From an uncultured Solirubrobacterales bacterium (GTDB lineage: Bacteria > Actinomycetota > Thermoleophilia > Solirubrobacterales > Solirubrobacteraceae), in the NCBI GenBank assembly GCA_963753145.1, contig CAVWAX010000001.1, positions 39,573-103,572 on the forward strand: a stretch of 64,000 nt of DNA, in the 5' to 3' direction. A program made the position numbers and the translations under genes. The first letter of the stretch is position 1. Every line of letters starts with the position of its first letter. The notes beneath the pieces are model-generated. The model was not told the DNA's origin, ran no database searches, and saw only the letters and a program-made list of their open reading frames with translations. Shown piece by piece: positions 1,006 to 9,071 of the stretch.

Positions 1006-1710
1006 CACTGCCTCCTGCTCGTCATCGAGTCCGGCGCAGCGAAACCCAACGCCGCGCACGGTTTCGATATAGCTCGGGCTGGAGACGTCATCGCCGAGCT
1101 TGCGTCGCAGCGCCGCTATGTGCACGTCGAGCGTCTTGGTCGAGCCGAACCAGTTCTCATCCCACACCTCGGCCATCAGCGTCTCGCGCGAGACGACCCG
1201 TCCAGGCTCGCGCGTCAAGCGCTCGAGCAGATCGAACTCCTTGCGGGTCAGGTCGAGCTCGGCCTCCCCGCGCCATGCGCGCCGCGCCGAAGGATCGAGG
1301 CGCAACTCCCCGACCGTTCGCACCGTTGGGCTCGAAGGGGCGGAGCGCGCGCGGCGCAGGACCGCGCGAATCCGCGAGACCACCTCGTCGATCGCAAATG
1401 GCTTGACGATGTAATCGTCGGCGCCCAGCTCCAAGCCGACGACCCTGTCGGTCACGGTGCCGCGCGCGGTCACCATGAGGATCGGCACGTCCGAGGTGCG
1501 GCGCAGCTCGCGGCAGACGTCGCGACCGTCGGCGTCGGGGAGCGTCAGATCGAGCAGCACAACCTCCGGCGGATCCTCCCGCGCGAGTCCCAGTGCGTCC
1601 CGCGCGGTCCGAGCGATCGAGACCTCGAAGCCGTGACGGGCGAGAGCATGCGCGAAGGGATCGGCGATAGACGCCTCGTCCTCGACCAAGAGCACTTTGC
1701 CGGCGCCCAT
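1000..1710 (-). CDS. OmpR/PhoB-family response regulator
   Basis: KVLLVEDE receiver, LLDLTLPD, GADDYIVKPF and wHTH ending IETVRGVGFR. Start placed at ATG 1710 rather than the extended ORF start. Confidence 0.93.
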   Translation of the reverse strand: MGAGKVLLVEDEASIADPFAHALARHGFEVSIARTARDALGLAREDPPEVVLLDLTLPDADGRDVCRELRRTSDVPILMVTARGTVTDRVVGLELGADDYIVKPFAIDEVVSRIRAVLRRARSAPSSPTVRTVGELRLDPSARRAWRGEAELDLTRKEFDLLERLTREPGRVVSRETLMAEVWDENWFGSTKTLDVHIAALRRKLGDDVSSPSYIETVRGVGFRCAGLDDEQEAVS

Positions 1711-1756
1711 ACTTACAGACATGGCCCCCACGATAGGAGCACTCGTCTCGGACAGG

Positions 1757-3610
1757 GTGAGCAGCCTGATAGAGCACCGCGCGCGCGTACTGGCGGCGAT
1801 TGCGCTTACCGCTCTGCCGGCAGGCGCCCTGGCCCACCTGGCGGGCGAGGCCACCACGGGCGATGACATCTGGCGCGCAGCGGTCGCGCTGCTTGCCGGG
1901 GCGCTGGCGGTCGAGGTCGGCAGGACGATCGTGGTTGAGCATCACATGGGCGTTGACACGATCGCCCTGGTGGCGATGGTGGGCGCGCTGGCGCTCGGGG
2001 AAGAGCTGGCGGGGCTGATCGTGGGGATCATGTTCACGGGCGGCTCGACGCTGGAGGACATCGCGTCGAGCAGGGCCCGGCGCGAGTTGACGGCGCTGGT
2101 GCAGCGCGCGCCGAAGGTCGCTCAGCGCAAGCGCGACGGCCGGCTGGAGGAGGTGCCGGTCGAGGAGGTGCAGGCCGGCGAGGTCGTGGTGGTTCGCACC
2201 GGGGAGGTGGTTCCTGTTGACGGCGCGGTGCTGAGCGCCGAGGCGGTGCTCGACACGAGCGCGCTGAGCGGCGAGCCGCTGCCGGTCACCTTGAAGCAGG
2301 GGATGGACGTGTTGAGCGGAACCGCGAATGCGGGCGCACCGTTCGAGGTGCGGGCCAGCCGCCCGGCGCGTGAGAGCGCGTACGCGGCACTGGTGCGTCT
2401 CGTGGAGCAGTCGCAATCCCAGCGTGCGCCGCTGGTACGGATGGCCGACCGCTACGCGGGGTTCTTCCTGGTGGCGACGCTCGTGCTGGCGGGCGCCGCA
2501 TGGGCGGCGAGCGGCGACGCGGTTCGCGCACTTGCGGTGGTCGTGGTCGCGACACCGTGCCCGTTGATATTGGCCGCTCCGATCGCGCTTGTGTCTGGGC
2601 TCTCGCGCGCGGCGCGCGCGGGGGTGATAGTGAAGGGCTCAGGCGCGATCGAGGTCCTTGGCCAGGCGCGGACGGTGCTGTTCGACAAGACGGGAACGCT
2701 GACCGTTGGCACGCCCGAGGTGCGCGACATCGCCACGAGCGACGGCGCGAGCGCGGGCGAGCTGCTGCGATTGGCCGCGTCGGTCGACAGGATGTCGACT
2801 CATGTCCTGGGCGAGGCGCTGGTGAAGGCGGCGCACGAGGCGCAGGTGACGCTCGCGATGCCGACCAGTGTGCGCGAGCAGCCGGGGCAGGGAATAGAGG
2901 GCGAGGTGGAAGGGCGCCGGGTGGCGGTGGGAAGCCGCGCGTTCTTGCGCTCGAGCGGCGTGCCTTCCGAGGAGGTGGACGCCGCAACGACGATGACCGG
3001 CTACGGCTCTGGCGAGGCGCACGTGCTCGTCGGCGTCGACGGACATCTGGGGGGCGTGGTGGTGATGGCCGACGTGCTGCGCGCCGACGCGGAGCGGATC
3101 GTCGAGCGACTGCGATCGGAGGGGGTCCGTCACGTGGCGATGGTCTCCGGCGACCGCCGCTCGGTGGCTGAGCGCATCGGGCGCGAACTGGGCGTGGATC
3201 GTGTGTATGCGGAGCAGTCCCCCGAGCAGAAGCTGGATGTGGTGCGCTCGCTGCGTGGCGAGGCGCGCCTGCGCCCGGTGGTGATGGTCGGCGACGGCGT
3301 CAACGACGCCCCGGCGCTGGCGCTCGCGGACGTCGGGATCGCGATGGGCTCCGCCGGAGCGACCGTCTCTTCGCAGACCGCTGACGCGGTGATCACAGTA
3401 GATCGGATCGATCGTGTCGCCGATGCGCTTCACGCGGGCCGGCGAGCGCTGCGCATCGCGCGCGAGAGCGTCCTGTTCGGGATGGGCCTCAGCCTCGCCG
3501 CCATGCTCGTCGCCGCGGCCGGCTATCTACCGCCCGTGGCGGGCGCGCTGCTGCAGGAGGGGATCGACCTCGCGGTGATCCTCAACGCGCTGCGCGCGCT
3601 GTATGGGTGA
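1757..3610 (+). CDS. Heavy-metal P1B-type ATPase (P1B-5-like motifs)
   Basis: SGE actuator, TPCPL TM motif, FDKTGTLT, MVGDGVNDAPALA, C-terminal QEGIDLAVILN. Start uncertain (1697/1721/1757). Confidence 0.92.
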   Translation: MSSLIEHRARVLAAIALTALPAGALAHLAGEATTGDDIWRAAVALLAGALAVEVGRTIVVEHHMGVDTIALVAMVGALALGEELAGLIVGIMFTGGSTLEDIASSRARRELTALVQRAPKVAQRKRDGRLEEVPVEEVQAGEVVVVRTGEVVPVDGAVLSAEAVLDTSALSGEPLPVTLKQGMDVLSGTANAGAPFEVRASRPARESAYAALVRLVEQSQSQRAPLVRMADRYAGFFLVATLVLAGAAWAASGDAVRALAVVVVATPCPLILAAPIALVSGLSRAARAGVIVKGSGAIEVLGQARTVLFDKTGTLTVGTPEVRDIATSDGASAGELLRLAASVDRMSTHVLGEALVKAAHEAQVTLAMPTSVREQPGQGIEGEVEGRRVAVGSRAFLRSSGVPSEEVDAATTMTGYGSGEAHVLVGVDGHLGGVVVMADVLRADAERIVERLRSEGVRHVAMVSGDRRSVAERIGRELGVDRVYAEQSPEQKLDVVRSLRGEARLRPVVMVGDGVNDAPALALADVGIAMGSAGATVSSQTADAVITVDRIDRVADALHAGRRALRIARESVLFGMGLSLAAMLVAAAGYLPPVAGALLQEGIDLAVILNALRALYG

Positions 3611-3692
3611 GGGGCGCTTGGGAATAACTACGGATACCCATAAGTGACGATTGCGGTCGCCCGCGAGAGCGCGTAGGCGTTGACTGTTAGGG

Positions 3693-4292
3693 ATGTTTCA
3701 GGTGCGCATCCACGGGCGGGGCGGGCAGGGCGTCGTCACCGCGGCTGAACTGCTGTCGCTGGCCGCCTTCGACGAGGGTCGCCACGCGCAGGCGTTTCCG
3801 AGCTTCGGATCGGAGCGCATGGGCGCGCCGGTGGTGTCCTTCTGTCGCATCGACGATCGCGAGATCCGCCTGCGCGAGCCGGTGGCGAGTCCCGACGCGC
3901 TGATCGTGGCCGATCCGACGTTGCTGCACCAGGTGGACGTGTTCGGTGGGTGCACGGCGGACTGTTACATCCTGATCAACACCACCAGGAGCTTTCACGA
4001 GCTCGGGCTGGGCGATTTCGTGAAGCGATTTCGCGGCGAGCGTCTGCTCACCGTGCCGGCCGCGGAGCTCGCGCGCGAGCACACCGGGCGCGCGCTTGCC
4101 AACGTGCCTCTGCTCGGCGGCTTTGCCGCGCTCACCGGCCAGATATCGCTCGCCTCGGTGGAGCGAGCGATCGCCGAGCGCTTCCCCGGGGCGCTGGCCG
4201 AGCGCAACATCGTGGCCGCGCGCGCCGCGTGCGCGTGGGTGGAACAAGAGATGAACGACCTGGCCTCGCCGAGCGCGGCCGCGGAGGCCTGA
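3693..4292 (+). CDS. porC: 2-oxoacid:acceptor oxidoreductase gamma subunit
   Basis: VRIHGRGGQGVVTAAELL and FGSERMGAPV motifs; first gene of the coupled operon. Confidence 0.92.
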   Translation: MFQVRIHGRGGQGVVTAAELLSLAAFDEGRHAQAFPSFGSERMGAPVVSFCRIDDREIRLREPVASPDALIVADPTLLHQVDVFGGCTADCYILINTTRSFHELGLGDFVKRFRGERLLTVPAAELAREHTGRALANVPLLGGFAALTGQISLASVERAIAERFPGALAERNIVAARAACAWVEQEMNDLASPSAAAEA

Positions 4293-4293
4293 G

Positions 4294-5547
4294 GTGCCCC
4301 GCCAGATCGAGGGCTCGCGCGCGGTCGCCGAGGCCGTGGCTCTGTGTCGCCCGGAGGTGATCTGCGCCTACCCGATCTCCCCGCAGACGCACATCGTCGA
4401 GAACCTCTCGGCCCTGGTCAAGACCGGCGAGCTCGCGCCGTGCGAGTTCGTCAACGTGGAGTCCGAGTTCGCCGCGATGTCGGTCGCGATCGGCGCCTGC
4501 GCGACCGGCGCGCGCGCCTACACCGCGACCGCTAGCCAGGGTCTGCTGTACATGAGCGAGGCGCTCTACAACGCCTCGGGCCTGGGCCTGCCGATCGTGA
4601 TGACGGTCGCCAACCGCGCGATCGGCGCCCCGATCAACATCTGGAACGACCACAGCGACGCGATGAGCCAGCGCGACAGCGGTTGGATCCAGCTCTACGC
4701 CGAGACCAACCAGGAGGCCGTGGACCTGCACATCCAGGCGTTTCGCCTGGCCGAGGCGCTGTCGGCGCCGGTGATGGTTTGCATGGACGGCTTCGTCCTC
4801 ACGCACGCCGTCGAGCGCCTCGAGATGCCCACCCAAACGCAGGTCGACGCGTTCCTGCCCGCGTTCGCGCCGCGCCAGGCGCTCGACCCTGACGAGCCGA
4901 TCACGATCGGCGCGATGGTGGGCCCCGAGGCGTTCATGGAGGTCAAGTACCTCGCCCACGCCAAGCAAATGCAGGCGCTGGAGCTGATCCCCGAGATCGC
5001 CGCCGAATTCGAGCAGGCGTTCGGGCGCGACTCCGGTGGGCTGGTTCGCGGCTACCGCCTTCAAGACGCCGAGACGATCGTGGTGGCGCTAGGCTCGGTG
5101 CTCGGCACGATCAAGGACACAGTCGATGAGATGCGAGCCGACGGCGCGAAGATCGGGGTTCTGGGCATTACCTCGTTTCGGCCCTTCCCGTTGCAACAGG
5201 TGCGAGAGTTGCTCGCTCACGCCAAGCGCGTGGTCGTGCTCGAGAAGGCGCTCGCGGTCGGCATCGGAGGGATCCTCACAACCGATGTGCGTATGGCCCT
5301 CTCCGGCATCCACCTGCACGGCTACACGGCGATCGCCGGCTTGGGCGGCCGTCCGATCACCAAGGTCTCGCTGCATCGCCTGTTCGCCGACGCGACGGCC
5401 GATCGGCTGGAGCCGCTCACGTTCCTAGACATGGACTGGGACGTCGTAGACCGCGAGCTGGCCCGCATGGGCGCGTCTTCGAGTTCAGGCCCCCACGCGG
5501 AGAACATCCTGCGCGACGTCGGCTCGGTTGCGGCGGGACCGGTATGA
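4294..5547 (+). CDS. porA: 2-oxoacid:acceptor oxidoreductase alpha subunit
   Basis: AYPISPQT, VESEFAA, TATASQGL, NRAIGAPINIWNDHSD. Confidence 0.94.
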   Translation: MPRQIEGSRAVAEAVALCRPEVICAYPISPQTHIVENLSALVKTGELAPCEFVNVESEFAAMSVAIGACATGARAYTATASQGLLYMSEALYNASGLGLPIVMTVANRAIGAPINIWNDHSDAMSQRDSGWIQLYAETNQEAVDLHIQAFRLAEALSAPVMVCMDGFVLTHAVERLEMPTQTQVDAFLPAFAPRQALDPDEPITIGAMVGPEAFMEVKYLAHAKQMQALELIPEIAAEFEQAFGRDSGGLVRGYRLQDAETIVVALGSVLGTIKDTVDEMRADGAKIGVLGITSFRPFPLQQVRELLAHAKRVVVLEKALAVGIGGILTTDVRMALSGIHLHGYTAIAGLGGRPITKVSLHRLFADATADRLEPLTFLDMDWDVVDRELARMGASSSSGPHAENILRDVGSVAAGPV

Positions 5548-6536
5548 GCTCGCCATCGGCCCCGCTCAAGTACTACCAAACAGGCAGCTTCGCGGTGGGC
5601 AACCGCCTGCTCGATCCCGACCAGCGCGCGGTCCAGGCCGGCGAGGGGCGCGCCAACTCGATCACCTGCGGGCACCGCGCCTGCCAGGGTTGCGGCGAGG
5701 CGCTCGGCGCGCGCTACGCGCTTGACGCGGCGATGCGCGCGACCGGCGGGCGCATGATCGCGGCCAACGCGACCGGGTGCCTGGAGGTGTTCTCCACGCC
5801 CTATCCCGAGAGCTCGTGGCGGATCCCTTGGATTCACTCGCTGTTTGCCAACGCGCCCGCGGTGTCTACCGGGATCGCCGCGGCGCTGCGCGCCAAGGGC
5901 CGCGAGGACATCCGCGTGGTCGGCCAGGGGGGAGACGGCGGCACCGTGGACATCGGCATGGCCTGCCTGTCGGGCATGTTCGAGCGCGGCGACGACGTGC
6001 TCTACATCTGTTACGACAACGAGGCCTACATGAACACCGGCGTGCAGCGCTCCGGCGCCACCCCGCCGGCCGCGCGCACGAGCACAACCCAGGCGGTGGG
6101 AGCGCAGCCGGGCAACGTGTTCGGGCAGGGCAAGAGCGCTCCGCTGATCGCGATGGCGCACGAGATCCCGTATGTCGCCACCGCGACGGTCGCCGAGCTG
6201 CGCGATCTGGAGGCCAAGGTGCAGACCGCGATGGGGCTGCACGGAGCGCGCTACCTGCACGTGTTCGTGCCGTGTCCCTTGGGCTGGGGCAGCGCCCCCA
6301 AGGACACGATCCGGATTGCGCGGTTGGCCAAGGAGACGGGCATCTTCCCGGTGTTCGAGGCCCGCGACGGCGAGGTCACGGCGGTCTCGAAGATCCGCCG
6401 CCAGGCGCCGGTCGAGGAGTACCTGCGGGCACAGCGGCGCTTTGCCCACCTGTTCGAGCCCGAGCCTCACACCGAGACGATCGCGCGCATCCAAGCGGGT
6501 GCCGATCGCAACATCCGACGCTTCGCTCTGCTGTGA
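5544..6536 (+). CDS. porB: 2-oxoacid:acceptor oxidoreductase beta subunit (TPP-binding)
   Basis: [44 protein letters not shown]; ATGA overlap with the alpha subunit. Confidence 0.94.
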
Positions 6537-8161
6537 TGGACAAGCCTTTCGCGATCACGCTGGACGTGGGCTCGAGCCTCGCCAACAAGACCGGCAGCTG
6601 GCGCGAGGAGCGACCGCTCTACGTCCACCGCGTGCCTCCGTGCAACGTGGGCTGTCCGGCCAAAGAGGACATCCAGCGCTGGCTCTACAGTGCCGAGTCG
6701 GGCGACTATCGGACCGCTTGGCTTGACCTGGTCGTCGACAACCCGCTGCCGGGTGTGGTCGGGCGCGTCTGCTACCACCCGTGCGAGTCTGCGTGCAATC
6801 GTGCCCAGCTCGACGACGCTGTGGGCATCCACGGCGTCGAGCGCTTCCTCGGCGACGAGGCGATCCGCCAGGGCTGGGAGCTACCGGGTCCCGTCCAGCT
6901 CTCGGGCAAGCGCGTGCTCGTGGTCGGCGCCGGGCCTTCGGGTCTGTCGGCCGCCTACCAGCTCGCGCGCGCCGGACACGCGGTCACGATCCGCGAGGCC
7001 GGCCCCCTGGCGGGCGGCATGATGCGATACGGCATCCCGCGCTACCGGCTGCCGCGCGAGGTCCTCGACGCCGAGGTCGCACGCATCCTGGAGATGGGCG
7101 TGACACTCGAGTGCGAGGCGCCGGTCACCGACATCCTCGCCACGATGCGCGATGGCGGCTTCGACGCGGCGTTTCTCGCTGTCGGCGCGCACATCGCAAA
7201 GCGCGCCTACATACCGGCCGGCGAGGCAGCGCACATGCTGGACGCCGTCTCGATGCTGCACGACATGGAGGGCGAGGACCCGCCACTGCTCGGGCGGCGC
7301 GTGGCGGTCTACGGCGGTGGCGACACCGCGCTCGACGCCGCCCGCACCGCCAAGCGGCTGGGCGCGAGCGACGCGGTTGTCGTGTACAGGCGCACCCGCG
7401 AGCGCATGCCCGCGCACGACAGCGAGGTGAAGGAGGCGCTGCGGGAGGGGGTCGAGATGCGTTGGCTCTCCACGATCGCACACGCCGACGCCGGCAAGCT
7501 CGTGATCGAAAAGATGCGCCTGGACGACGATGGCTTTCCCCAGCCCACGGGCGAGACCGAGGAGCTCTCAGCCGACTCGCTCGTGCTCGCCCTCGGACAG
7601 GAAGCCGACCTCTCGTTGCTCGACGGTGTGGAAGATATTGAGATTGATGGTGGCGTGGTCAGCGTCAACGATCGCATGATGACCGGTCACCCCGGCATCT
7701 TCGCGGGTGGTGACATGGTGCCGGCCGAGCGCACCGTGACTGTGGGGATCGGCCACGGCAAGCAGGCCGCCCGCAACATCGACGCCTGGTTGCGCGCCAC
7801 CCACTACGCGCAACCACCGCAGGGTTCGGAGGCCAGCTTTGAGACGCTCAACCCGTGGTACTACGCCGACGCCCCCAAGACGGTCGCGCCGACGCTCGAC
7901 GCGATCCGCCGCCAGTCCACCTTCGAGGAGGTCTCACTCGGCTTGGACGAGCACAACGCGCTATTCGAGGCGCGCCGCTGCTTGAGCTGCGGCAACTGCT
8001 TCGGCTGTGACAACTGCTACGGGGTGTGCCCCGACAACGCGGTCCTCAAGGTCGATCAGGCCGACGGCTACGCCTTCGACCTGGACTACTGCAAGGGCTG
8101 CGGCATCTGCGCGCAGGAGTGTCCGTGCGGAGCGATCGAAATGATCCCGGAGATCATTTGA
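6536..8161 (+). CDS. GltD-like FAD/NAD(P)-binding Fe-S flavoprotein fused to a C-terminal PorD-like 2x[4Fe-4S] domain
   Basis: Starts at TGATG overlap ([10 protein letters not shown]). Motifs [41 protein letters not shown], then [12 protein letters not shown] and [12 protein letters not shown]. Confidence 0.9.
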
Positions 8162-8188: not shown

Positions 8189-8374
8189 TCACGCCGTTCG
8201 CGTGTCCTCGCCACCCGACGGTCGTGGCCTGTAGCGCCCGTGCTCCAGCCACGCCAGCCGGCGATGGCGTGGCGACTTGAGCGTGCGTCCGCTGTGCAGC
8301 GTCGCGAGCGCGCACACCAGAAAGCACAATGACCCGATCGCGAACGAACAGGCCATCCAGCGCTCGCGGCTCAC
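8189..8374 (-). pseudogene. Probable internally deleted remnant of a membrane protein gene (61 aa)
   Basis: GTGA overlap with the upstream amidotransferase stop. VSRERWMACSFAIGSLCFLV is joined directly to CALATLHSGRTLKSPRHRR, which resembles both ends of a longer actinobacterial membrane protein (recalled, not searched). Confidence 0.4.
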
Positions 8375-8985
8375 CCCGCGGCTGGTCCCTGCGAGGACGG
8401 CGGCGGCGTCGGCGCGAACGGGTAAACGTCGTCGCGCCCGCCGGCGATCACGGCGTAGCTTGACTCGGGCATTTCCCGCCACGCGCCGGGCAGGTCCCCG
8501 ATCGGCTCGGAGACGACCAGCCGCGCATCGTCTGAGACCTCGTCGAAGATCTCCTGCCTGGGATAGAGCTGGCGCAAGGTCGGTATGTCGGCGGTGTAGA
8601 ACAGCGAGCGCGACTCACCGACGTTGGAGTAGCGGAACACCCACATCCGCTCGCCGTCGGTCACTGCAAGCGTGCCCTGGAACGGCTCGGCGACGCCCAG
8701 GGCGTGCCCCGCGCTCTCGACGAGCCCGATGGTCTTCGCGACAGCGCTCGGCGGATCGTCGGTCAAGCCCAGGCTGAGCGCCAGGTAGAAGAGGACCTCA
8801 GAGTCGGGGAACCTGCCCGGCTCTGGACCGGCGTCGTCATACCAACCGACGCCAAACCCATCGCCGTTGGTCGGCTCGGCGCCAAGCCGGGAGTGAAGGC
8901 TCTGGTCGATCAGCGAATGCGCAGGTGCGTACAGCGCCCTCGAGAGCAGGATCGGCGCTCCGGTGTAGGCGAGCCAGCGGCACAT
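8371..8985 (-). pseudogene. Class II (Ntn) glutamine amidotransferase, EgtC/YafJ-like, with an apparent in-frame internal deletion
   Basis: MCRWLAY with N-terminal Cys and NGDGFGVGWY jumps straight to DSEVLFYLAL. The family AHIR, NCHPF and HNG segment is missing. Confidence 0.75.
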
Positions 8986-9071
8986 CAAGCCATACCTTAC
9001 GCCGCGGAAAGCGCTGGGGCTTCTCGCGAGCCGGTTGAGTCGTCATAGCCGTTGATTACCATCGTGGGTCG

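Follow-up and report, generated by a model that had tools for sequence, protein, structure and literature searches.

A predicted pyruvate:NADP+ oxidoreductase operon in an uncultured Solirubrobacterales bacterium, with a GltD/NfnB-type flavoprotein module inserted into the PorD subunit

In this work, a four-gene operon at 3693-8161 was analysed in a window of 64,000 nt from an uncultured Solirubrobacterales bacterium (GCA_963753145.1, contig CAVWAX010000001.1). The fourth gene product, as read from its sequence, is the delta subunit (PorD) of a 2-oxoacid:ferredoxin oxidoreductase (OFOR) whose two halves flank an inserted FAD module. We consider it on balance probable that the operon encodes a pyruvate:NADP+ oxidoreductase that would bypass the pyruvate dehydrogenase complex (PDH) at low oxygen. 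All genes lie on the + strand and were intact in open reading frame (ORF) and Pfam/NCBIfam profile checks. The first (3693-4292) encodes the CoA-binding gamma subunit PorC of 199 aa (PF01558; TIGR02175 181.8 bits against a cut-off of 81.1) and is separated by a 1-nt gap, with no overlap, from the gene of the pyruvate-type alpha subunit PorA (4294-5547; 417 aa; POR_N and PFOR_II, PF01855 and PF17147). An ATGA overlap joins the latter to the gene of the beta subunit PorB (5544-6536; 330 aa; TPP_enzyme_C, PF02775), and a TGATG overlap joins this to the 541-aa gene of the NF009410 family (6536-8161; Fer4_20, Pyr_redox_2 and a C-terminal Fer4 dicluster). A first-pass annotation had described gamma, alpha and beta genes and a 541-aa gene with GltD-type and 2x[4Fe-4S] domains, and in this it was borne out. 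A longer ORF of 794 aa (5777-8161) was discarded as an in-frame upstream extension over beta, the homologues beginning at the 6536 ATG.

The 541-aa protein scored 733.1 bits against NF009410/PRK12771 (curated cut-off 516), and its C-terminus barely cleared the PorD model TIGR02179 (60.4 against 60.05). The PorD 2x[4Fe-4S] domain (residues 487-539, 7994-8152; TIGR02179 and NF040684) contains the ligands C488/491/494/498 and C519/522/525/529. All eight of these Cys were invariant in 94 homologues, and fifteen Cys of the whole protein were invariant in the alignment. The N-terminal arm of PorD, with its TGxWR..RP motif, was located at the other end of the protein (residues ~4-31, 6545-6628), where it aligns with residues 3-28 of the PorD chain 9bt4_G of Methanosarcina acetivorans pyruvate:ferredoxin oxidoreductase (PFOR). 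Residues 1-40 alone had positions 6-31 of PorD_Arch as their top NCBIfam match (E 1.3e-4), and residues 482-539 matched positions 28-84 of the same model. When arm and C-terminus were rejoined in silico, the score on PorD_Arch was 86 bits versus 57 for the C-terminus alone, and on M. acetivorans PorD 80 versus 60 bits, covering 9bt4_G 3-83, which is nearly the full length. Of 99 complete distant relatives taken from a 50%-identity library, 82 combined the arm with the CKGC motif, 11 lacked the two, six had CKGC but no arm, and an arm without CKGC was seen in none. Thus the flavoprotein is not simply fused ahead of delta, as had been supposed; by the rejoined-half alignments, a permuted module of 450 aa is inserted inside PorD. 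Nor does the gene occupy the usual PorD place, since it stands last here (order C-A-B-D) and second in the canonical order porC-D-A-B (PMC13768988). Distant homologues are found in the porC-D-A-B slot (including loci L154, L161 and L162) or fused behind PorC, which argues that the 541-aa protein is a delta subunit rather than an adjacent chain of glutamate synthase. This is the only PorD-like domain in the genome, and likewise the POR_N domain is the only one. Fusions of PorC with an inserted delta were seen in P0152, P0186, P0195, P0201, P0217, P0220 and P0246; at the P0148 locus (JGI 3300035696), where PorC is likewise fused before the inserted delta, the next gene is an alpha-beta fusion, so that two genes encode the whole set.

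The inserted module comprises residues 33-486 (6632-7993), delimited by model superposition and NfnB alignment, and is a circularly permuted GltD/NfnB module. The AlphaFold2 model of the protein had a predicted local distance difference test score (pLDDT) of 93.9 and a predicted template modelling score (pTM) of 0.92, and its residues 28-488 superposed on 9bov_A 96-569 with Z 43.2 and a root-mean-square deviation (rmsd) of 2.1 over 457 aligned residues. In the structure search, the equivalent domain in Nfn-ABC and StnC (8oh5, 9bov, 9n5u) gave Z 41-43 and rmsd 2.1-2.7, and unpermuted NfnB and GltD covered just residues 31-427 of the model. The module body aligns with Thermotoga maritima NfnB from residue 45 on. 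Residues 458-486 align with NfnB 15-43, weakly if taken alone (E 0.034), and C482/C485 then fall on NfnB C39/C42. With ligand numbering transferred from PMC7596348, C40/C79/C83/E102 were assigned to the proximal cluster and C36/C87/C482/C485 to the distal one; all module ligand Cys were invariant and E102 was found in 93 of 94 rows. Four [4Fe-4S] clusters, FAD and an NADP(H) site are predicted for the protein. The new termini of the permuted module meet at the distal cluster, which fits the need of insertion into a loop. The GltD distal-cluster ligand C485 is only three residues from C488, the first PorD ligand, and this closeness suggests a hard-wired electron path from thiamine pyrophosphate (TPP) to NADP+; we infer that five clusters form an unbroken wire between TPP and FAD. 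The YRR motif at residues 284-286 (7385-7393), which is shared by all 18 close loci that were examined and by 56 of 79 distant rows, is a mark of NADP(H) preference (PMC7596348) and points to NADP(H) as the cofactor of the predicted site. The closest structures use the permuted module as an NADP(H) site, and the FAD of StnC was shown to be non-bifurcating (PMC10482914). The FAD in the 541-aa protein most likely just switches between two-electron and one-electron transfer, without bifurcation.

An unlikely alternative is that free ferredoxin or flavodoxin is still required by the complex, or is its main acceptor, with the insert serving as an attached ferredoxin:NADP+ reductase (FNR) or an NfnB-like bifurcating site whose partner is encoded elsewhere. 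With its junction to PorD three residues away from a cluster ligand, the insert would be expected to obstruct the ferredoxin exit, if the first CxxCxxC of the PorD domain holds the distal (exit) cluster. In favour of such an acceptor, the 2-oxoglutarate enzyme of Azoarcus, which is compared below, reportedly serves both acceptors. The Arg that is hydrogen-bonded to FAD N5 in NfnB is kept as R171, by our reading of the alignment, in 93 of 94 rows; the non-bifurcating StnC keeps its counterpart as well. For the nifJ-linked relative in Propionibacterium, bifurcation has been proposed (PMC7650540). Neither NfnA nor a gene like that of dihydroorotate dehydrogenase (DHODH) is present in the operon studied here.

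By comparing the core subunits with known structures, the alpha subunit was found closest to M. acetivorans PFOR (9bt4_B, top PDB match, 389 bits versus 217 for oxalate oxidoreductase), and beta gave 308 bits with 9bt4_C versus 213 for oxalate oxidoreductase. The NCBIfam ranking of alpha was PorA_Arch (461), VorA (298), PadG (275) and the oxalate oxidoreductase model (254), each score lying under the model's own cut-off. Alpha has the substrate residues Ser29, in a YPISP motif, and Arg108; beta has the GDG...N motif for TPP/Mg, Asn164 and the proximal [4Fe-4S] ligands C47, C50, C79 and C244 (invariant columns). Ser29, Arg108 and Asn164 align with the Thr/Arg/Asn set of one-subunit PFORs, presumably their pyruvate-binding residues, and the motifs APINIWNDH and YMNTG are identical to those of M. 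acetivorans PFOR. Our best guess is that pyruvate is the substrate of the predicted enzyme. In the alpha tree, suggested earlier as a guide to substrate class, the window fell among 23 insert-bearing rows that form a supported clade, and at least two changes were needed; the tree was not used to draw a class because it was without characterised references and gave long-branch warnings. That another small or branched 2-oxoacid (2-oxobutyrate, 2-oxoisovalerate) is the main substrate of the same wiring, for amino-acid breakdown, is improbable: Por and Vor both belong to this four-subunit class (TIGR02175/TIGR02179), many PFORs accept several 2-oxoacids and Ser replaces the Thr of characterised PFORs, but alpha prefers PorA_Arch to VorA by the above scores, the two motifs are exactly those of the M. 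acetivorans enzyme, and the neighbouring genes belong to the pyruvate node.

We hypothesize that the products of the operon form a TPP-dependent, CoA-acetylating four-subunit complex with the reaction pyruvate + CoA + NADP+ -> acetyl-CoA + CO2 + NADPH. By homology with classical PFOR, alpha and beta would hold TPP and pyruvate and gamma would hold CoA. The two PorD halves would rejoin as a ferredoxin domain docking on this core, and the permuted GltD/NfnB module would sit in the loop between them. Electrons would pass from TPP to the beta cluster, the two PorD clusters, the two GltD clusters, FAD and finally NADP+, so that free ferredoxin would not be needed. Transfer from pyruvate to NADP+ should be downhill by ~145-170 mV. 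The direct 2-oxoacid-to-NAD(P) coupling suggested in the first-pass annotation is supported by architecture, conserved ligands and linkage and can be narrowed to pyruvate and NADP+, with subunit binding and activity as predictions. From the neighbourhood, the enzyme would run oxidatively at low oxygen, yielding acetyl-CoA and NADPH when NADH build-up blocks PDH. In Synechocystis, PFOR takes over from PDH at high NADH/NAD+ (PMC13768988). More speculatively, NADPH might be reoxidised via PntAB, crotonyl-CoA carboxylase/reductase or alcohol dehydrogenase.

Linkage was examined from both sides. The 80 closest loci by the 541-aa protein (73-83% identity) belong to Solirubrobacterales or unclassified Actinomycetes metagenome-assembled genomes with largely soil- or peat-type labels. 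The beta gene lies directly upstream in 80 of these 80 delta-selected loci, and every one of sufficient length has the order gamma-alpha-beta-541-aa gene. In loci selected by alpha at no less than 69% identity, beta and then a 541-aa-type gene follow in 11 of 11. The operon is accessory, a close alpha being found in 2 of 11 sampled same-family genomes. The NF009410-type family as a whole numbers no fewer than 8,000 clusters at E 1e-100 or better, and the design is widespread; the first-pass annotation had held similar operons in other bacteria to be probable. The family cut-off was passed in 43 of 301 Actinomycetota genomes, a tally that includes DsrL and nifJ-linked forms and in which the unpublished genomes G001, G048, G088 and G120 count only in the denominator. 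Frameshifts, possibly assembly indels, were noticed in gamma, alpha or beta of L010, L011, L021, L066, L071, L075, L076 and L079.

A single OFOR, the one located here, is encoded in the genome (3.29 Mb, 90.8% complete). The genome also carries E1 of both PDH and 2-oxoglutarate dehydrogenase, pyruvate kinase, PntB and three heme-copper oxidase subunits I (COX1), and the host resembles aerobic soil Solirubrobacteraceae. The neighbours in 68 relatives were phosphoenolpyruvate (PEP) synthase in 52, acetyl-CoA hydrolase/transferase in 45, a NarL-type regulator in 26, glyceraldehyde-3-phosphate dehydrogenase (GAPDH) in 24, universal stress protein (USP) in 19, an M50/CBS protease in 18 and zinc-dependent alcohol dehydrogenase (Zn-ADH) in 11, together with PfkB, acetate kinase and phosphoketolase. 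In most cases the operon opens with the PEP synthase gene ppsA, at most 115 nt from gamma in 50 relatives, with a divergent CoA-transferase gene and GAPDH. Several of these families also occur in the mycobacterial DosR regulon, and our reading of the relatives' neighbourhood is a hypoxia-type island.

The same neighbourhood could be read for the opposite direction, in which NADPH, CO2 and acetyl-CoA would give pyruvate in vivo, pulled to PEP by co-transcribed PEP synthase, for acetate assimilation and electron disposal. For this speak the position of ppsA beside gamma with the divergent CoA-transferase and GAPDH; moreover, isocitrate lyase was not found in this genome or five relatives, PntB could supply NADPH, and the title of St. 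Maurice 2007 names reversible PFOR-NADPH coupling in Helicobacter. However, the reductive direction is uphill, with -515 to -540 mV for pyruvate/acetyl-CoA+CO2 against ~-370 mV for cellular NADPH, at a cost of ~+28 to +33 kJ/mol by our arithmetic. A bifurcating partner for the reductive run is absent from the operon, crotonyl-CoA carboxylase/reductase, present in 5 of 5 genomes tested, offers an alternative acetate route, and the loss of ppsA from the window's operon weakens the argument further. We therefore regard this direction as doubtful, and the reverse carboxylation allowed for in the first-pass annotation is retained, at ~145-170 mV uphill, only as a minority reading. There is likewise only a slim chance that ppsA-porC-A-B-D* of aerobic soil Thermoleophilia works as a ferredoxin-free, NADPH-driven and PEP-synthase-pulled pyruvate synthase by which CO2 would be fixed into acetyl-CoA during hypoxia, either to assimilate acetate or to serve as an electron sink.

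Several points nevertheless weigh against an oxidative pyruvate:NADP+ oxidoreductase. Only gamma and the delta family pass an equivalog cut-off (PorA_Arch requires 550 bits of alpha), and as alpha and beta do not, the substrate range is not fixed. The genome encodes one free ferredoxin, of the 7Fe type, and PFORs are promiscuous towards small redox proteins. NF009410 proteins also serve DsrAB, NifJ and complex I, so membership in a family with other partners is by itself no proof of binding. Acetate kinase and acetyl-CoA hydrolase were not found in the 90.8%-complete genome, and the window's own lineage is without the ppsA and CoA-transferase neighbours.

Among solved structures, M. acetivorans PorCDAB (9bt4) comes closest to alpha, beta and the rejoined PorD, and it is alike in its separate gamma, alpha and beta and in its active-site motifs. 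Its PorD is unsplit and has 85 aa, whereas the 541-aa protein is split by the flavoprotein, the gene order here is C-A-B-D and the predicted acceptor is NADP+. Of the classical four-subunit features, separate gamma, the alpha/beta motifs and the arm with 2x[4Fe-4S] were all found; a small stand-alone delta in the order porC-D-A-B was not. The first-pass annotation named no biochemical characterisation, but a biochemical precedent exists in an Azoarcus evansii enzyme, 2-oxoglutarate:NADP+ oxidoreductase (Ebenau-Jehle, Boll & Fuchs 2003, PMID 14526024), which has a flavoprotein assigned to the GltD/NfnB/DsrL superfamily in PMC10134865. This enzyme too is an OFOR that reduces NADP+ via a FAD/Fe-S subunit of this superfamily encoded with the OFOR genes. 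The KorAB-type or 2-oxoglutarate class was rejected for the present operon, in which gamma is separate and the scores were 111.9 against 482.75 for TIGR03710 and 43 against 261.9 for the KorB model. The A. evansii enzyme is said to be specific for 2-oxoglutarate and to have three subunits and a KorAB-type core. Euglena/Cryptosporidium pyruvate:NADP+ oxidoreductase (PNO) and Azoarcus PadEFGHI carry out the same type of reaction, from 2-oxoacid to NAD(P)H without free ferredoxin. PNO is a one-subunit PFOR fused to a flavodoxin/P450-reductase-type domain, and Pad (phenylglyoxylate:NAD+ oxidoreductase) uses a separate NAD flavoprotein. The earlier comparison with the Euglena reaction in another architecture holds, as no flavodoxin/FNR-type Pfam domain was found in any of the four proteins; this excludes Euglena-type PNO itself, and the Pad models scored far under cut-off. 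An oxalate oxidoreductase was rejected from YPISP in place of YPIRP and 254 against 500 bits, and GltD of glutamate synthase from TIGR01316/7/8 scores under cut-off and the lack of a GltB partner alongside. A GltD-like gene does occur elsewhere in the genome (30% identity, C1:196142), behind a 1616-codon ORF that is probably gltB.

Among the flavoproteins, the GltD-like domain of StnC and NfnA of Bfu-type transhydrogenases contain the same permuted module and are the best structural match, but there the module lies within a NuoG-like protein and is connected to a bifurcating module of the HydBC type, of which this operon has none. NfnB/NfnAB was rejected, the NfnA partner ([2Fe-2S]/FAD) being found neither in the operon nor in conserved neighbours, the places searched. 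DsrL and other NF009410 proteins have the same succession of domains, beginning with two clusters, going on to FAD and NAD(P) and closing with two further clusters, and they share YRR; DsrL partners DsrAB, whereas the 541-aa protein is linked to pyruvate oxidoreductase (POR) genes. Homologues linked to pyruvate/ketoisovalerate oxidoreductase genes were explicitly excluded from the DsrL study, in which the link was noticed and set aside (PMC7596348, 2020). By the criteria of that paper, dsrAB context and no POR link, the directly POR-linked 541-aa gene is not DsrL. DsrL-like proteins with the same RCxSCGxC stretch before the C-terminal dicluster were seen beside dsrAB-like genes (L119:6991-8658 and L120-L124), and the Ser/Thr and Arg ligands that PMC7596348 proposes for the distal DsrL cluster may have arisen from overlooking the circular permutation. 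In the nifJ-NF009410-DHODH-like operon of Propionibacterium, a same-family flavoprotein lies beside a PFOR gene, but that PFOR is one-subunit with its own domain V, the arm is degenerate, an extra FMN protein is present and the function is only proposed (PMC7650540). Similarly, L111-L115 and L118 have an NF009410 gene, its arm degenerate and without Trp, directly ahead of the gene of a nifJ-type PFOR, and in L111 and L112 a DHODH-like gene comes next. The Aeromonas record L113 (4.9 Mb) bears the label of a plasmid and is probably a chromosome.

The permuted cassette appears portable, as it was also found in the delta subunit of an oxalate oxidoreductase and in a protein encoded at the NuoI slot of a complex I operon. 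The operon at L130:4558-9477 (-), also seen in L131 and L132, is of the oxalate oxidoreductase type with the order gamma-delta-alpha-beta; its alpha passes NF045791 (525.8 against 500) and has YPIRP, and its delta has the same insert with SLE replacing YRR. An oxalate:NAD+ oxidoreductase is a possible reading of these genes. At L133:6827-8683 (-) (G020:C2), a 618-aa gene in the NuoI slot has the GltD-type cassette (NF009410, 515 bits) before a NuoI-type dicluster C-terminus, within a nuoA-B-C-D-H-I-J-K-L-M-N operon (L133:1390-12033) with no nuoEFG inside. The operon might encode a complex I that has its own entry point for NAD(P)H.

Upstream of gamma, an element with fixed-spacing conservation was located at 3626-3685 (+), consisting of an AACTAC box (3626-3631), a CGGT box (3654-3659) and TTGACT (3680-3685), which ends 7 nt 5' of the gamma ATG. 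The AACTAC box was found in 47 of 50 ppsA-led and 8 of 20 gamma-led upstream regions of relatives at near-constant spacing. In the lineage of the window, ppsA was lost from the operon and the element was kept. It is probably an activator site with a promoter, perhaps leaderless, and region scans detected no sigma-70 promoter, terminator or Rfam match. The core motif is not enriched genome-wide (13 matches versus 17 in shuffles), so no regulon is claimed. The core box was also seen on the opposite strand in about seven other relatives and recurs in island flanks. A P1B-type ATPase gene (1697-3610, +) ends 82 nt 5' of gamma, in the slot of ppsA in most relatives. On the other side, a 205-aa ORF (8371-8988, -) with the N-terminus MCRWLAY and no Pfam match appears internally shortened and is presumably class II glutamine amidotransferase-like. 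A DosR-like stress set with TreT, phosphoribosyltransferase, baeRF10, USP, M50/CBS, a NarL-type regulator and Zn-ADH occupies 12995-36922 of the window, and ~22-29 kb before the start of the window (G000:C1:10679-17075) there is a Hyf/Ehr-like membrane cluster with a weak NiFe large-subunit match under cut-off.

The family is already known in that it is annotated (NF009410) and large, its POR link was noted in 2020 (PMC7596348) and a related NADP+-reducing enzyme is on record. This analysis adds the permutation and ligand map, the two-way linkage, an aerobic soil host with an island of ppsA and CoA-transferase genes, and the occurrence of the cassette in oxalate-type and complex I settings. 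The literature search, with most subscription journals outside it, found no biochemical study of the split-PorD form or characterised PorD-GltD enzyme. In a 2026 review of PFOR diversity (PMC13768988), forms with one, two, four and five subunits are described, and neither GltD nor glutamate synthase is mentioned anywhere; the present form is omitted from it though its members number thousands. If the proposed function is true, genomes annotated as "PFOR plus glutamate synthase small chain" would be mis-modelled, the product being NADPH and not reduced ferredoxin. A pyruvate decarboxylation step that yields NADPH would also be on offer for metabolic engineering. For the organisms themselves, it would mean that a common aerobic soil group of Actinomycetota possesses a PDH bypass for low oxygen.

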